From contig DATJKA010000054.1 in the NCBI GenBank assembly GCA_035491815.1, positions 15,004 to 79,003 on the forward strand: DNA of 64,000 bases. The letters run 5' to 3'. Below, piece by piece: positions 39,612 to 45,670 of the stretch. A program made the translations under genes and the position numbers. The notes under the pieces were generated by a model, which searched no databases, was not told where the DNA came from, and was given only the letters and a program-made list of their open reading frames with translations. The DNA comes from Gemmatimonadales bacterium. GTDB lineage: Bacteria > Gemmatimonadota > Gemmatimonadetes > Gemmatimonadales > GWC2-71-9. The stretch's first letter is position 1. Each line of letters begins with the position of its first letter.

Positions 39612-40852
39612 TACGAAGGTCTCCCGTGACAAGTCCCAGAACCGGAATCGGTGAACGTGCCCTGGCCGGGGGCGGGCAAGAACTTCCAGTCGTAGCCGCC
39701 GGCCTTGAGCGTGAGCTTGAGGACGCCGAACGTCGGGTTTTCGCCGTTGCCCGCTCGAACTTCGAGGTTGGGCACGGTCGGGCCGAAGCCGTACAGGCCC
39801 TCGCCGCCGCCGGTACCGACGGTGATTTGGCGAATCCCGAAGGCCGCGTCCGCTGTGCCGTCGGGCTTCATCGGCTTGAAGCGCTGATACGTGTGGTCAT
39901 GTCCATTCAGCACGAGATCGGCGCCGTAGTCGTACAGCGCTTGCCAGATCGGCGTCGTCTCCGGCCGAATGAACGGCCGATCGGTGACGGTGCTGAACTG
40001 CGGATGGTGCATCAGCGCGAGCGTGCATTGCTGCGTGTGACTCGCGAGCTCGCTTCGCAACCACTGCTCCTGCGGGGATCCGGCGGCGATGAAGTTCGCG
40101 TTCTCGGTCCCCGTGTTCACCACGATGACGAGCCACGCCCCGAGGACGAAGTCGTAGTAGCCCTTGGTCGGGTCACCGGCGACGGCGCCGAAATACCCGA
40201 AGTAGCCGTCGGCGTTCTTGGTCGCGCCGGGGTTGTAGTAGTCGTGATTGCCGAGGACCGGGCGCATGCGGTCCTTGGCGTGGCCCCACGCGGGATCGAA
40301 GCAGGTCGCAAACTCGGTCGGCGTGCCGCTCAGGTACGCGTTGTCGCCCAGCGGCATGACAATGCCGGCGATCGTGTCGAGCAGGCTGCCGGTGGCGTCG
40401 TCGCTGGTGCGATTGCAGTCGCCGATGTCGCCGGCGGCGATGATCACGGGATCGGTTGCGTTGACGCTGAGCGAGTCCGTGCCCGTCGCGGCGTGACTGT
40501 TCGTGACGCTGACCTGCACCGTGTAGTTGCCGGTCGTGGCATACATGTGCGTCCCGGTGATCGGCGCGATCGTGCTCTTCGAGCCGCTCGCGTCGGTCGT
40601 CCCGTCACCCCAATCGACCCTGTAGCTCCAGGGCGCGCTGGCCGTGGTGGTGTCGGTGAACGTCGCGTTCAGGTCGAACGTCGTGCCGACGGGGAGCTTG
40701 TCGTTCTGGCCCGCGGTCACGACCGGCGCACCCGGAGGCGGGGGCGGCGGCGGTGGCGGTGGCGGCGGGCCAGGTGGCGTGGCGCCGCGGCAAGCCACCG
40801 CGGCGATCAGAAGCAGGGCGCCGTGTAGGCGAAGCAGAGTCTTATGTGTCAT
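39611..40852 (-). CDS. Lipoprotein: poly-Pro linker, PKD-like domain, MPE domain (paralogue 3)
   Basis: ATG 40852 gives the signal [21 protein letters not shown]. 12 Pro. PKD-like YRVDWGDG...[18 protein letters not shown] motifs [31 protein letters not shown]. Tail [24 protein letters not shown]. Confidence 0.85.
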
Positions 40853-41091
40853 TGTTCCGCGATGGTGGCGGATGGCCAGGGAAAATTGCCGCCACCGCCC
40901 GAGTCCTTCGGTGTCGCTTTCGGCGTCACCTTGGGCTCCGGTGCGGGGGCGGGCCGCTTGGTCTGCGGTTGCAGGACTGGAGAAGGCACCGCGGCCGGAG
41001 GCTCCGGTTGGTGCGATCCGCCGCCGCACGCGAGCAGCAGCGCGGTCTGCAGCGCCACTGCCATCGCGAAACGTCCGGCGAATCTCACCAT
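40849..41091 (-). CDS. Small Pro-rich lipoprotein, function unknown
   Basis: Signal plus lipobox ...AVALQTALLLACGGG, then a Pro/Lys-rich tail. Its stop overlaps the MPE3 start (ATGA). Confidence 0.5.
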   Translation of the reverse strand: MVRFAGRFAMAVALQTALLLACGGGSHQPEPPAAVPSPVLQPQTKRPAPAPEPKVTPKATPKDSGGGGNFPWPSATIAEQ

Positions 41092-41116: not shown

Positions 41117-42463
41117 TTAGTTGCAGGCGACCGACGAGGTGCTCTTGTCGGTGAAGCCACCCGCAGCCGTCGGGATGAATTCGTAGTCGTAGCTGCCGTC
41201 GTGGAGCGTGAACTTCATGACGCCCCAGCTGTCGGCCGTCCCAGTGACGCCGCCGAACTGCGCGGCGACCGGATTGCCACCGGTTGCGGCGTTCATACGG
41301 TCCAGACTGCGGCCACCCGTGCCGACGATGAATTGCGCGAAGCCTTTGGGATTCGCCGCGCCGTCAGGATCCGACTTCGGGAAGCGCTCGTACTGCTTGT
41401 CCTTTGCGCTGACCAGAACGTCCGCGCCGCTGGCGTACAGCGCCTCGGCGATGGCGTTTAGGTTCGCGTTGCGGCCCAATTTGCCAGGATCTGGCGCCCC
41501 GGTCGTGTATAGCCGGCGTTCCCAGGAGATCGCCAGGATGCAGGGTTTGGTGTTCGTAGCGAGATCCTGCGTCAGCCAGGTGAGCTCAGGGTGCGTTGCG
41601 ACGGTGTCACAACGGCTACCGCCTGGAGCGCCATCAGTCGACCAGCCGCACGTGCCAGGGGTCTGTTCGCTGGTCGTGTTCAGGACAATGATGTGCCACG
41701 ATCCAGCGTTGAAGCTGTAGTAACCGGTCGGCGCACCAGCCGAGTTGCCAAAGTACGAGTAGACGTTGGCAGCTCCACCAACACTCCTGAAGTCCATATC
41801 ACCGAGAGCGACGTGCATCCCGCCCTTGGCCGTCAGGAACTTTCCCCATGTCGGACCAAAGCACGCGTTGGGATCGGTGCTGCCGGAGCCCGACGCGATA
41901 TTGTTGCCGGTGGTGAACACGATGGTGTTCGAATCCGCCTTGATCTGGTTGTCGATCAGCGTAGCCGTCGCCGCGTTGCCGAGGCTCGAGCAAGTCGTGA
42001 TCTCACCGGCGCCGATCAGCGTGATGCTACCGGCGCCTGCGGCGAGCGTCGTCGCAGTTGCCGTCGTGCTCCACGCCGAGGAATCCGTGGCGTTGAACGC
42101 GCGCACCCGATAGCTGTACGGCGTGCTGGCCGCGAGGCCAAACGTGTCGGTGAACGCGACCGTATTGGCCGCCAAATTCGTTCCGACCTGCGCGAACGTC
42201 GTGCAGGCCGCGCCGGAGCAGCGATCGACGCGGAAACCGGTCTCATTCGTCGCGCTGTCGGTCCAGGCCAGATTGATGCCCGTCGCCGAGACGGCGGTTG
42301 CGGTCAGCCCGATCGGCGCCCGGATCGCCGGTGGCGGCGGGGGCGGCGGCGGGGGCGGCGGATTCGTGCCGCTGTCGTTCTTACAGGCGCCGATGGCGCC
42401 GATCACGCCGGCGGCTGTGAGAACGAGCGCGGCGCGAACCATGTTGCGGGGTGTGACCTTCAT
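41117..42463 (-). CDS. Lipoprotein: poly-Pro linker, fibronectin-III domain, degenerate MPE domain (paralogue 4, probable pseudo-enzyme)
   Basis: Signal ...AAGVIGAIGAC. 11 Pro. FN3 (GLTATAVSATGINLAWTDSATNETGFRVDR...YSYRVRAFN). The MPE motif positions read GAGEITTC, GNNIA, GDMDF, SWER and AKDKQYERF. Tail SYDYEFIPTAAGGFTDKSTSSVACN. Confidence 0.8.
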   Translation of the reverse strand: MKVTPRNMVRAALVLTAAGVIGAIGACKNDSGTNPPPPPPPPPPPAIRAPIGLTATAVSATGINLAWTDSATNETGFRVDRCSGAACTTFAQVGTNLAANTVAFTDTFGLAASTPYSYRVRAFNATDSSAWSTTATATTLAAGAGSITLIGAGEITTCSSLGNAATATLIDNQIKADSNTIVFTTGNNIASGSGSTDPNACFGPTWGKFLTAKGGMHVALGDMDFRSVGGAANVYSYFGNSAGAPTGYYSFNAGSWHIIVLNTTSEQTPGTCGWSTDGAPGGSRCDTVATHPELTWLTQDLATNTKPCILAISWERRLYTTGAPDPGKLGRNANLNAIAEALYASGADVLVSAKDKQYERFPKSDPDGAANPKGFAQFIVGTGGRSLDRMNAATGGNPVAAQFGGVTGTADSWGVMKFTLHDGSYDYEFIPTAAGGFTDKSTSSVACN

Positions 42464-42494
42464 ACATCGCTCCTTAGGTGGAAACGTGAGACAG

Positions 42495-42725
42495 TTACAA
42501 GCAGAAGCCGGTGCCGGAGTCGGAGATCGTGCCGCCGGCAGCCGGCACGGTTTCCCATGAGTAGGTCAGGGTCAGGCAGCTCGCATCGCTCGCCCCACCC
42601 AGGAATGCACCGCCGCCCATATCGCTCGGCAGCGTTGCGCCAAAGGCGTTGCGACACGAGACCACCGCGAGCACGGCGCCCAGAATCACGAGGGCACGCA
42701 GGAACAGCATCATGGCAGGTCGCAT
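42495..42725 (-). CDS. 76-aa mini-lipoprotein carrying only the C-terminal tail motif of the MPE family
   Basis: Signal plus lipobox MRPAMMLFLRALVILGAVLAVVSC. The C-terminus CLTLTYSWETVPAAGGTISDSGTGFCL aligns with [22 protein letters not shown] of the MPE paralogues. It sits 3 nt downstream of the FemAB/ATP-grasp gene. Confidence 0.5.
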   Translation of the reverse strand: MRPAMMLFLRALVILGAVLAVVSCRNAFGATLPSDMGGGAFLGGASDASCLTLTYSWETVPAAGGTISDSGTGFCL

Positions 42726-42728
42726 CGG

Positions 42729-44996
42729 TCACTCCTTCGCGCTGCGCAGTGTCAGCGGCGGTTCGTTGGAGCCCCGAACGACGCGCGCCAGCGAGTCGAT
42801 CCCGCGGCGGACGGTCGCGCCGATCATGGGCAGCGGGTCATCCCACGCGAAGCCACTCTTCGCCTGACAGCGAATGACCCACAGGGTCCACTCGGCAAGG
42901 GACATGCCTGCCGCGCGCGCGGCGAATTGGTCTTTCCACGGCTTGCACCAGCGCACGAATGGACGGGCCGGCCCCAGGATGGGGCGCGGTGTGCCGACCA
43001 GGTCGCCGTAAACGAGTGCGGGAAGGTTGATGCCGGCGATCGCGCCGAGGTGATGCCAAAGATTGAAACGCGGATTCACCTCGAGCAGCCGCAGCGTGCC
43101 GTCGGGGGCGCGTTTGAAATCGAATTTCGCGACGCCCCGGAACTTGAGCTTCTTGACGAGCACGCGGCCGAGCGTGAGGACGTCCTGCGCGTCGCTCGTC
43201 TCGAGCGCCGTGCTGTCGCCGTAGGACGCGGGCCACGTGCGGATCTTGCGGCCCGCGAACTCGCCGACGACCTGACCGCGCTCGTCCACGTAGGCGTGAT
43301 AGCTCTCGATCCGCGCCTCGTCGCCCGGCACGAGCTCCTGCGCCAGAATCGGGAGATTCGCGGCCATGATCTTCGGCCAGAGCGCGCGCAACGCGTCGAG
43401 ACTCTCGAGCGACGTCGCCTTCCCGGGACCCGCGAGCGGCTCCCAGCGCGCCGGAATCCGCACGAGCGGTTTCAGAATGATCGGGAAGGGAATCGCGAAG
43501 TCGTCGCCGGGCAGCGGATCACCGGGCGCGATCACGCGCGCCTGCGGCACCGGCAGATCGATGCGCGCCGCGAGCTGCTGAAACCGCGCCTTGTCCACCA
43601 GCTGCTCGACCAGCTCGGCATCCGGCACGACGAAGCGGAACGCCTCGCGCAGGCGGTCGCGATGGCGCGACACCAGCAGCAGCGTTCGGTCTTCCTGGTA
43701 GAACAACGCCGGCGGCTCGGGCTGCGCCTGGCCGAACTTCACCAGTGCGTCGACGAGCTCTTCCGGCCGCTCCCACGCGTTGTGCCACGGGAAGACGGCG
43801 CGCGTGTGGCGCGAATAGCGGACCGGCGCGCCGGGCGGGCACAGGACCGTCGACGGAATCCGCGCGAGGCCGAGCGCGCGGACCAAATCCACGTCGCCAA
43901 GGACGACGGCGGGTGGCCGGACGGGATGGGCGCGGTGGCCGCCGCGGCCGATGAATGCGGTGCTCCCGCGCGTGACGCGCGCGAGCTGCCCGCGCGCCGC
44001 CTGCTGCACGCCGTAGACCCGTTTCGCGGCGTTCCGCGCCGTCATGAGCCAGGCACGCCGGCCGCGCAGCCAGCGCCGCTTCGACAGATCGAGCTCGGCG
44101 CCGAACTTCGCCTTGAAATCGCCGCGGCCCATGAAGTCCACGTGATCGCAGCCGAGCTCGAGGGCGCGCTGCATCACGGTCCACGTCATGAGCTCGGTGG
44201 GGCGGTACCAGCGATAGTGCTGGCGGTGCGCCCACATCCAGAGCTGGAGCTCGGTGCCTTCGCGGAAGAAGAGGCCGGTCGCGATGTTGACGCGCCCGCC
44301 GGGCAGGTAGACGGAGATCGCGAGCAGGTTGCCGGCGGCCTTGAGCCGGCGGAACACCTCGAGCACACGCTGCTTGCTGAACGGCACGGCGAAGCCGCCG
44401 CGCCGGTAGACCTCTTTCACCTGCGCGTAGTGCTCGTCCACGAACGCCTCGTTCTCTTCGAACCGCGTGACGAGGCCGAGCCGTTGCGCGCGCTTCACGT
44501 TGCGACGCGCGCTGACCTTGAGCTGCTTGAAGGTGCGCGCCGTGTCACCCGGGAACAGCCGGGCGCACATTGTCGGTGCCTCTTCTTCGGCGAATCCCGC
44601 GGCGCGCATCGCATCCGGATCGAGCGACAGGCTGAGCAGCTCGATGTGATCGACGTCGTGCTCGCGCTCGAGATACGGCACGAGCGCGGCCGTGAAGGCG
44701 GCGGTAGAGAAGCGTTCCGGATCGAACGCGGGGCCGAGGCTGACGGTCTGCCAGCCTTCGAGCGGCGAGCCGAACAGCTTCCAGCGCAGCGCGGTGACGA
44801 GCAGCCCCGGACAACAGCCGACGATGCCCTGATCGTCTTCGAGCAGCAGGTACAGCGGTTTGCCGCAATTGCTGGCGGCGAGTGCGTCGATCCAGCCGCG
44901 CGTATGGGGCACGCGGGTGTTCGGAAAGCGGCGGACGATCGCGTCCCAGTGCTCGAGCTCCTCGGCGGTCGCCTCGCGAATGCGCAATGTGTTCAT
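42729..44996 (-). CDS. Fusion protein: FemAB-like/GNAT (Acetyltransf_6-type) N-domain plus ATP-grasp carboxylate-amine ligase C-domain
   Basis: Start ATG 44996 (ATGA overlap). The N-part is FemAB/CelD-like (..WDAIVRRFPNTRVPHTRGWIDAL.., ..ELMTWTVMQRALELGCDHVDFMG). The C-part has ATP-grasp motifs (FPIILKP, LAQELVPGDE, FRGVAKFDFKRAPDGTLRLLEVNPRF). Confidence 0.65.
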   Translation of the reverse strand: MNTLRIREATAEELEHWDAIVRRFPNTRVPHTRGWIDALAASNCGKPLYLLLEDDQGIVGCCPGLLVTALRWKLFGSPLEGWQTVSLGPAFDPERFSTAAFTAALVPYLEREHDVDHIELLSLSLDPDAMRAAGFAEEEAPTMCARLFPGDTARTFKQLKVSARRNVKRAQRLGLVTRFEENEAFVDEHYAQVKEVYRRGGFAVPFSKQRVLEVFRRLKAAGNLLAISVYLPGGRVNIATGLFFREGTELQLWMWAHRQHYRWYRPTELMTWTVMQRALELGCDHVDFMGRGDFKAKFGAELDLSKRRWLRGRRAWLMTARNAAKRVYGVQQAARGQLARVTRGSTAFIGRGGHRAHPVRPPAVVLGDVDLVRALGLARIPSTVLCPPGAPVRYSRHTRAVFPWHNAWERPEELVDALVKFGQAQPEPPALFYQEDRTLLLVSRHRDRLREAFRFVVPDAELVEQLVDKARFQQLAARIDLPVPQARVIAPGDPLPGDDFAIPFPIILKPLVRIPARWEPLAGPGKATSLESLDALRALWPKIMAANLPILAQELVPGDEARIESYHAYVDERGQVVGEFAGRKIRTWPASYGDSTALETSDAQDVLTLGRVLVKKLKFRGVAKFDFKRAPDGTLRLLEVNPRFNLWHHLGAIAGINLPALVYGDLVGTPRPILGPARPFVRWCKPWKDQFAARAAGMSLAEWTLWVIRCQAKSGFAWDDPLPMIGATVRRGIDSLARVVRGSNEPPLTLRSAKE

Positions 44997-45670
44997 ACGC
45001 CGTCTTGCTCTAGCAACCGACGTGCCGCGGTCATTTCGGGCGGCGGCGCGAACTTTCGTCGCCCCGCGGCGACCGCGCCGATCGCCCACAGCGTGCGGCC
45101 GATGATCTCCATGTCGCGTCGCATCGAGGCGCGGCGGAGGTACACGCGATCGAGCGCGAGTTTCGTCTTGAGCAGCTTGTCGACGTAACGCGCTTCGGGA
45201 TCGTTGCCGGTGAGCAGCTTGTCGCCCGACGTGAACTGGTAGATGCTGCCGGGACTCGCGAGCCCCGGCCGGACGCCGAGGGTTTCGAGATCGCCGGTGG
45301 AGTAGTGCTCGAGGACGATAGCGGGGTCTTCGGGCCGCGGACCGACGATGGCCATGTCGCCGCGGAGCACGTTGAACAGCTGTGGGAGCTCGTCGATTTT
45401 GGAGCGGCGCAAGAAGCGCCCGATCGTCGTGATCCGCTCGTCGCCGTGACCCGTGATGACCGCGCCGCCGGCGTCACCATCCTCCTCGTGCTTCATCGTG
45501 CGCAGCTTGAACATCGTGAACTCGCGGCCGAGATAGCCGACGCGGCGGGCGCGATAGAACACGGGCCCGCGATCGCTCAGCTTGATCCCGATGGCGGCGA
45601 TGGCGATGAGCGGTGCGGTGACGACGAGCGCCACGGTGGCGCAGACGACGTCAAATAGGCGTTTGACCAT
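44993..45670 (-). CDS. Small monotopic phosphoglycosyl transferase (bacterial sugar transferase, PglC/WbaP C-domain type)
   Basis: MVKRLFDVV..ALVVTAPLIAIAAIGIKL..GPVFY...FTMFKLRTM...DELPQLFNVLRGDMAIVGPRP. Confidence 0.9.
   Translation of the reverse strand: MVKRLFDVVCATVALVVTAPLIAIAAIGIKLSDRGPVFYRARRVGYLGREFTMFKLRTMKHEEDGDAGGAVITGHGDERITTIGRFLRRSKIDELPQLFNVLRGDMAIVGPRPEDPAIVLEHYSTGDLETLGVRPGLASPGSIYQFTSGDKLLTGNDPEARYVDKLLKTKLALDRVYLRRASMRRDMEIIGRTLWAIGAVAAGRRKFAPPPEMTAARRLLEQDGV

Follow-up and report, generated by a model that had tools for sequence, protein, structure and literature searches.

Comparative analysis of the window, a 64,000-nucleotide (nt) stretch of DNA from a Gemmatimonadales bacterium, identified a 76-codon open reading frame (ORF), referred to here as the mini-ORF, whose 24-codon signal peptide and lipobox cysteine form the most conserved piece of the neighbourhood, while the mature remainder of the product is relaxed. 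As read from the DNA, the mini-ORF is a predicted lipoprotein precursor with the signal peptide as its conserved element, and it is confined to one uncultured Gemmatimonadales genus. We consider it probable, by a small measure, that the selected product is an exapted unit of signal peptide and lipobox, derived from a decayed and catalytically dead lipoprotein of the MPE phosphoesterase family. The ORF and its parts are listed below.

42495..42725, minus strand: mini-ORF (P0001), 76 codons plus stop, with known syntenic orthologues.
42654..42725, minus strand: signal peptide, codons 1-24, with the lipobox V-V-S-C and Cys24 at 42654-42656; the strongly conserved unit.
42579..42653, minus strand: linker, codons 25-49, variable and rich in Gly, Ala, Ser and Asp, mostly 20-25 residues long in homologues.
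42498..42578, minus strand: Cys50...Cys75 loop, codons 50-76 (...YSWETVPAAGGTISDSGTGFCL), derived from the final two beta-strands of the MPE fold.

The encoded protein (MRPAMMLFLRALVILGAVLAVVSCRNAFGATLPSDMGGGAFLGGASDASCLTLTYSWETVPAAGGTISDSGTGFCL, 76 amino acids (aa), beginning MRPAMMLFLRALVILGAVLAVVSC) is read from an ATG at 42723-42725 to a stop codon at 42495-42497. An initial annotation of this DNA had described a 76-aa ORF with a credible lipoprotein signal; its translation was exact, and both the lipobox and a strong ribosome-binding site are present. A charged n-region (R2, R10) is followed by the hydrophobic stretch ALVILGAVLAV, a pattern that is invariant or nearly so in 46 homologues, and the lipobox V-V-S-C matches the pattern [LVI][ASTVI][GAS]C. 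The genome contains one match to Lgt (PF01790) and two matches above the cut-off to LspA (PF01252). With an n-region, an h-region, a lipobox and encoded Lgt and LspA, the product has the features predicted of a lipoprotein precursor. Across the 46 homologues, 11 columns of the signal peptide were invariant (L7, L9, R10, A11, L12, L15, G16, A17, A20, V21 and C24), and M5, M6, V13, I14, V18, L19 and S23 were retained in at least 90% of the sequences. The lipobox (V21-[VILM]-S23-C24) is conserved at positions -3, -1 and +1, with position -2 left free. The small-residue face G16xxxA20 is fixed in the minis, and position 16 is mostly Ala in the full-length forms described below. AlphaFold2, run with the 46-sequence alignment, was confident only for the signal-peptide helix (residues 5-29; predicted local distance difference test, pLDDT, 73-88). 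Scans of the mini-ORF against Pfam and NCBIfam matched no family.

Selection along the ORF was estimated by maximum likelihood (ML) with GY codon models in IQ-TREE, on a topology fixed from the codon tree of the 3' part of the upstream FemAB/ATP-grasp gene. The following values of omega (dN/dS) were obtained.

Signal peptide, codons 2-24: ML omega 0.03-0.07, 2dlnL 53-93 against omega = 1.
FemAB/ATP-grasp gene, last 196 codons: ML omega 0.10.
Tail, internal Cys to end: ML omega 0.36-0.62, with p between 5e-5 and 0.06 according to the frequency model.
Linker: omega not usable, the sites being saturated; the estimate is unreliable because the tree length is 22-41.

By the NG86 method, the signal peptide of the mini-ORF showed an omega of 0.10, with a proportion of non-synonymous differences (pN) of 0.035 and of synonymous differences (pS) of 0.37. 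In the same genomes, the signal peptide of the neighbouring lipoprotein MPE4 gave an omega of 0.39 (pN 0.16, pS 0.41), so that pN is ~4.6-fold lower in the mini. Signal-peptide omega was 0.09 in genomes lacking the tail and 0.10 in those bearing it, and two genomes that retain the signal peptide only, G034 and G021, differ by seven synonymous and no non-synonymous changes. Among 44 minis, identity was 91% in the signal-peptide core and 48% in the mature part, whereas among 12 full-length forms the corresponding values were 71% and 75%; the pattern of constraint was therefore inverted after the deletion. A purely neutral tail, which NG86 values of 0.55-1.0 would have allowed, was considered and dropped once the codon ML estimates were available. 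The data suggest that the tail is weakly useful yet dispensable, either vestigial or accessory. The initial annotation had placed its interest in the tail, which does keep some constraint, but the strongly selected part is the signal peptide. It had also proposed a search for orthologous mini-ORFs and a dN/dS analysis; all 14 loci of this type carry the ORF, under the purifying selection described above.

These 14 loci represent 14 of the 50 genomes of the genus, namely all those with this locus type, and the signal-peptide ORF was absent from the 77 other genera of the family that were sampled. Additionally, ~45 metagenome homologues of the mini-ORF were retrieved. An exhaustive profile search of 1.84 billion representatives gave 13 matches, which comprised the lineage of the mini and the fifth paralogue described below, together with C-terminal tail matches in three larger proteins. 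The start codon, the Shine-Dalgarno (SD) sequence and the lipobox Cys are kept in 14 of 14 loci, and the alleles take four forms.

Intact mini, 72-76 aa: G000 (the window genome), L021, L023, G003, G014, G008, L027.
Long mini, 100 aa: G027.
Full-length gene, 318 aa: G012.
Signal peptide only, 25-28 aa: G034, G021, G018, G001, G007.

Among the genomes the tail was lost at least four times (G018, G001, G007, and G034 together with G021), by lesions that differ from one another and with sister taxa intact. For instance, L027, the sister of G018, is intact (bootstrap 94-99), and G001 adjoins the intact G014. A tail remnant persists out of frame in G001, and in G007 it lies behind a premature TGA, the old stop being gone. 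Two further losses, for a total of six, were found in the metagenome sequences P0177 and P0183, both with signal peptides of other subtypes. The six truncations stop 1-7 residues past the lipobox Cys (CD, CGNA, CGNSV, CDFAK, CQSAVQ and CSHFVESL), and the lipobox Cys is retained in every truncated ORF (25-31 aa, metagenome forms included). Errors in metagenome-assembled genomes could mimic the frameshift of G001, but not the substitutions and deletions of the other tail-less alleles.

The remnants in G001 and G007 would also be expected of a non-functional stub, which might stay open because its start and ribosome-binding site have not decayed, or because ribosome traffic through it protects or couples the expression of the downstream MPE genes. 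A parental gene that was already a dead enzyme and the graded decay series of 318, 100/90, 72-76 and 25-31 aa fit such a stub as well. Coupling or harmlessness, however, would leave the amino acids free, yet signal-peptide omega is 0.03-0.07 at a pS of ~0.37, and the two signal-peptide-only genomes compared above show synonymous changes exclusively. The retention of start, SD and Cys at every locus also speaks against a stub, as does the fact that outgroups cope with a direct overlap of the FemAB and MPE genes. We regard this explanation as improbable.

The near invariance of codons 2-6, third positions included, raises the question of whether the conserved 5' 72 nt act at the nucleic-acid level, as an internal promoter, RNA structure or antisense gene, and not through a peptide. 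The pS of the signal peptide (0.37) is slightly under that of the flanking gene (0.40-0.58), and an antisense frame has its third positions in common with the sense frame. The remaining codons nevertheless vary freely at synonymous sites, with changes almost only at third positions, and no promoter- or terminator-like site was predicted on the minus strand. The RNA fold z-score was -1.5 for 42455-42600, a segment that covers the 3' part and the spacer and not the 5' 72 nt. Moreover, an SD, a start codon and a lipobox are present in the sense frame, which is also homologous to a real lipoprotein gene. A nucleic-acid element is very improbable.

The tail constraint bears on a different explanation, in which the mature mini-lipoprotein is itself functional. 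It would form a lipid-anchored, disulfide-stapled MPE-hairpin loop of ~25 residues outside the cytoplasmic membrane, acting for example as a decoy or assembly partner of MPE lipoproteins, and the signal peptide would serve for targeting only. Both tail Cys are kept in 44 of 46 homologues, mostly 24-27 residues apart, and the motif VPxAG is retained. Only P61, A63 and G64 are invariant in the tail, with C50, V60, G73 and C75 present in at least 90% of the homologues. Tail omega lies below 1 at the p values given above, and length changes among intact alleles, numerous in the linker, are all in frame. Furthermore, a new internal Cys would be expected if loss of the core had deprived the C-terminal Cys of its partner and selection had favoured a replacement. 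On the other hand, at least six independent tail losses left a signal-peptide ORF still at an omega of ~0.05-0.09, and the conservation of the signal peptide, with its ~4.6-fold lower pN than that of MPE4, goes far beyond what targeting needs. AlphaFold2 gave no confident fold for residues 31-76, most of which, linker included, had a pLDDT below 50, so a stand-alone tail hairpin is not supported. The protein search for minis could return only ORFs of 42-133 aa, which introduces an ascertainment bias. Taken with these points, a functional mature loop appears rather unlikely. The initial annotation had offered a retained stand-alone peptide as one of its readings; this holds for the ORF, which is kept at all 14 loci, and for the Cys pair, but not for the tail, which is relaxed and repeatedly lost.

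It is strongly supported that the mini-ORF descends, through an internal deletion, from a fifth MPE lipoprotein paralogue of ~310-320 aa, without an immunoglobulin-like (Ig) module and with most metal-ligand motifs already lost. In G012 (L011:616-1572), the slot of the mini is occupied by a 318-aa gene, whose signal peptide (MRPSTQLLLRALLALGAITAVTSC) is homologous and whose tail is the same. The 100-aa form of G027 corresponds to this gene in two blocks, nt 1-53 to nt 1-53 and nt 128-266 to nt 815-953 (81% identity), with ~229 codons missing between them; its residues 41-89 are 63% identical to residues 270-318 of G012. Residues 31-75 of G003 align gap-free to residues 273-317 of the same protein. 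An in-frame deletion of ~230 catalytic-core codons thus joined the signal peptide and a short linker to the last 45-50 residues. The metagenome contigs L064-L066 carry, in order, a formyltransferase, PIG-L, Bac_transf, FemAB/ATP-grasp, a 307-313 aa gene without a Pfam match and an fn3 gene, followed by two PKD-MPE genes in L064 and L065, where the contig continues. In total, ~20 full-length homologues were found. The 90-aa form P0176 has a tail still nearly identical to the full-length tail; minis mostly end in CL (30 of 45), and the parental full-length form ends in CH. In the outgroups G017 and G023, the fn3-MPE gene overlaps the FemAB stop, with nothing between. The in-frame deletion relic of a fifth paralogue, put forward in the initial annotation as its other reading, is borne out by the full-length gene in the same slot (G012, L064-L066), collinear at both ends. 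Its statement that the catalytic core is absent also agrees with our results, since the alignment with the paralogues covers the signal peptide and the C-terminus only. No MPE metal-binding motif (GD / GDxxY / GNH[DE] / H / GHxH) occurs in the mini-ORF, where that region is absent.

The full-length protein could be aligned end to end to the MPE paralogues (43-53% identity). In place of the GNHDY, WHHPRF and GHDHxYER of active members, it has GDRDY, FYKRRF and GQDKIYER. These degenerate metal-ligand motifs, together with the absence of a Pfam match for the full-length parental protein, indicate that the parent was already a pseudo-enzyme. The closest solved relatives of the active MPE paralogue are plant purple acid phosphatases. 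As a side observation, the fifth-paralogue family (G012 and the metagenome proteins P0056-P0074) consists of Ig-less lipoproteins of 307-323 aa with a very conserved tail. Their metal-ligand motifs are mostly degenerate (GNRDY / FHKRRF / GQDKFYER), P0072 and P0074 keep GHDH, and some members carry the JGI label 'acid phosphatase type 7'.

When compared with the C-termini of the MPE proteins in the window, the mini tail scored 33.9 bits with MPE2, 33.1 with MPE1 and 29.3 with MPE3, against a mean of 14.6 and a maximum of 23.5 bits for the shuffled mature part (n = 300). The match to MPE4 was weak (16.5 bits, E 0.75). By tblastn, four more MPE tails elsewhere in the same genome matched the mini tail. 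An alignment with the tails of all four paralogues, confined to the last ~27 residues, had been reported in the initial annotation; it stands for MPE1-3 and not for MPE4, and the homology to the parental protein extends over the last 45-49 residues of the minis. In the collinear alignment, the internal tail Cys takes the place of the W of '...WGVIKF...' in G027 and of the F in the 76-aa forms, and it is therefore a new residue. Its derivation from the MPE motif-I Cys, saved by the deletion, was also considered and is ruled out by the same alignment.

The mini-ORF is flanked by the following features.

42729..45089, minus strand: fusion gene of a FemAB-like (Acetyltransf_6) and an ATP-grasp domain, assigned by Pfam and NCBIfam.
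42732..42737, minus strand: Shine-Dalgarno AAGGAG of the mini-ORF, identical with the last two codons (K-E, AAG GAG) of the FemAB/ATP-grasp gene.
42464..42494, minus strand: 31-nt spacer from the mini-ORF stop to the MPE4 ATG, containing TCACGT (42484-42489).
41117..42463, minus strand: MPE4, a lipoprotein with fn3 and a catalytically degenerate MPE domain, downstream of the mini-ORF.

The FemAB/ATP-grasp stop (TGA, 42729-42731) lies 3 nt ahead of the mini-ORF ATG, and the true start of that gene is probably an internal ATG. Downstream, MPE4 begins with an ATG at 42461-42463 and has its own AAGGAG at 42470-42475; these spacings of 3 and 31 nt agree with those in the initial annotation. The AAGGAG of the mini-ORF is kept in 10 aligned loci as well as in L021, L023 and L027, and G012, with the full-length gene, has AGGAAG in its place. 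GC content at third codon positions is 0.79 in the mini-ORF and 0.81-0.87 in its neighbours, and the codon-position GC fits a gene. The surroundings represent a Wzx/Wzy-type exopolysaccharide (EPS) operon on the minus strand of a soil Gemmatimonadales. It comprises a PglF-like dehydratase, a DegT aminotransferase, a formyltransferase, a PIG-L deacetylase and a Bac_transf phosphoglycosyl transferase; the FemAB/ATP-grasp fusion, the mini-ORF, three MPE lipoproteins and two P-loop proteins; and Wzx, Wzy, AsnB and glycosyltransferases. Co-transcription of the mini-ORF with its neighbours is plausible, given the short gaps on both sides and no predicted terminator. The sequence TCACGT(C/T) in the spacer before MPE4 is kept at most orthologous loci, including those with the G012 full-length gene and with tail-less alleles, and it could represent a site of regulation or processing within the MPE4 leader.

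The position of the ORF 3 nt past the FemAB/ATP-grasp gene, with a start tightly coupled to the enzyme stop at every locus, could indicate a precursor resembling ribosomally synthesised and post-translationally modified peptides, or another substrate modified by this enzyme. ATP-grasp enzymes modify small peptides in graspetide systems. The tail, however, is absent at 5 of 14 loci in which the enzyme is intact and highly conserved, and the enzyme occurs without the ORF in the outgroups G017 and G023. A Sec/lipoprotein signal would export the peptide from the cytoplasm, where an ATP-grasp enzyme works, and what is invariant in the tail is Pro, Ala, Gly and Cys instead of the Ser/Thr and Asp/Glu pairs of graspetides. 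In addition, the enzyme resembles the FemAB proteins of PEP-CTERM/EPS systems (NCBIfam) and lies amid sugar-modifying genes. A substrate role, which had been suggested in the initial annotation, is contradicted by these distributions and has a very slim chance of being correct.

Several further observations were made on the neighbouring genes. The C-terminus of the FemAB/ATP-grasp protein (42729-42790, minus strand, and orthologous loci) occurs in two forms. One ends in ...SRSDV (LNPxSRSDV in G003 and G027; HVPTRSDV in the outgroups G017 and G023), with a stop that overlaps or abuts the next start. The other ends in ...PLTL(R/V)(S/G)(A/V)KE, followed by a spacer of 3-7 nt, and is found at the remaining mini-bearing loci; L064 has the same ending and a longer spacer. 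In G012 the protein ends in ...LNPASRK. These forms are distributed in conflict with the mini alleles, which hints at recombination at the FemAB/mini junction. A second FemAB/ATP-grasp paralogue (59% identity) was identified at G000:C115:6258-7148 on the minus strand, with similar second copies in G014 and G034. In G000, no match to the signal-peptide ORF was obtained outside the window locus, the stretch downstream of the second FemAB/ATP-grasp copy not having been inspected directly.

A second mini-lipoprotein, P0004 (80 aa, 40849-41091, minus strand), lies between MPE4 and MPE3. It has a signal peptide (MVRFAGRFAMAVALQTALLLAC) and a Pro-rich stretch, followed by ...DSGGGGNFPW, and gave no significant match in Pfam or NCBIfam. 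It is conserved in L027 (MVRFATLTIMVVALQGLTIACGG...DSGGTTYPW), and the G008 counterpart starts alike. P0004 might represent either a further reduced paralogue or a genuine lipoprotein made up of linker only. Finally, three more MPE-type C-terminal tails were observed in one 1276-aa open frame at G000:C54:87576-90413 on the plus strand, ~8.6-11.4 kb past the window end. This frame represents either three in-frame tandem MPE genes without stops between them or a multi-MPE fusion.

Returning to the exapted signal peptide and lipobox unit, entry into the Lgt/LspA pathway, with the signal peptide or a minimal lipopeptide as the product, would most simply account for the conservation of the whole signal peptide, the retention of the Cys and the dispensability of the mature part. 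The mini-ORF would be translated from its strong SD and its product targeted to the membrane, where Lgt would lipidate Cys24 and LspA would cleave the precursor. The product might then remain in the membrane as a small helix, with a G16xxxA20 face that could bind some membrane component of either the EPS machinery or the lipoprotein pathway. Alternatively, it might be a peptide derived from the signal peptide and freed by LspA cleavage, with ...ALVILGAVLAVIS as a possible trimmed fragment. In the window genome, a 52-residue mature lipopeptide is probably still made, consisting of the flexible linker and the Cys50-Cys75 loop, and it would be accessory and dispensable. We tentatively propose, as a possibility below even chance, a genus-specific EPS-operon gene of 25-76 aa whose signal peptide was captured by selection during decay, with either the signal peptide (resident in the membrane or released by LspA) or the tiny residual lipopeptide as the active form.

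Several points weigh against the exaptation of the signal peptide. The omega of the signal peptide comes from 23 codons only, in 12-14 taxa, although the likelihood difference is very large. The hydrophobic stretch after Arg10 has only ~14 residues, few for a transmembrane helix to be stable, and signal peptides are normally degraded once free. Where the tail is kept it is not neutral (omega significantly below 1 in most model settings, both Cys in 44 of 46 homologues), and in tail-bearing species it may be the main carrier of function. The 5' stub of a decayed gene stays open for a while, and short ORFs alone prove nothing, so that the reading rests on omega. The history of the locus is also complex, with one or several deletions, deep nodes at a bootstrap of 44-47, and full-length and deleted forms that interleave; recombination among these forms is likely.

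The mini-ORF was compared with several known groups of small proteins. It resembles the purple-acid-phosphatase-like MPE lipoproteins of its own operon in the homologous signal peptide and last 45-50 residues, and differs from them in having no catalytic core and a gained internal Cys. AcrZ, KdpF, MgtS and PmrR are small bacterial membrane proteins (50 aa at most) that tune membrane enzymes by binding to them. The signal-peptide-only alleles are similar in their length of 25-31 aa, their one predicted hydrophobic helix, their location in an operon of membrane-associated enzymes and their purifying selection. Unlike proteins of the AcrZ type, which have full-length transmembrane helices and no lipobox, they consist of a core of signal-peptide length that ends in the lipobox Cys. 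The entericidins EcnA/EcnB and Lpp are very small lipoproteins whose mature part is conserved and functional. The mini shares with them a short lipobox precursor and a mature part of a few dozen residues, but in the mini this part is the least conserved and shrinks to 1-7 residues.

The phylum of the Gemmatimonadales is described as diderm. In enterococcal sex pheromones, the final residues of a lipoprotein signal peptide form the active peptide, which is released through Lgt, signal peptidase II and Eep; the pheromone role does not require the lipoprotein itself (PMC7117660, PMC4173765). As in the enterococcal precursors (cAD1, cCF10, cAM373), the key part of the mini is the signal peptide before the lipobox Cys and the mature part is dispensable, a resemblance of pattern only. 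The enterococcal systems belong to Firmicutes and involve the site-2 protease Eep, the exporter PptAB and plasmid-borne receptors; for the mini, no link to a receptor, exporter or protease turned up, none having been specifically sought. Furthermore, the whole 24-residue signal peptide is conserved in the mini, compared with only the last 7-8 residues in enterococci. We therefore describe the likeness as an analogy of design and not as membership.

Signal peptides are usually seen as disposable labels and gene remnants as junk, and at this locus selection tightens on the signal peptide as the rest of the gene decays. The locus offers a natural allele series (318, 100/90, 72-76 and 25-31 aa) across 14 species and ~45 metagenome lineages, and the 25-31 aa alleles fall under the size cut-offs of most gene callers, which is relevant for annotation. 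If the signal peptide is indeed the product, the series would document one route to bacterial microproteins, born from gene decay, and would provide a Gemmatimonadales counterpart of the enterococcal signal-peptide pheromones. It would also supply an easily synthesised peptide of 23-27 residues for studying the envelope and exopolysaccharide biology of a poorly known phylum.

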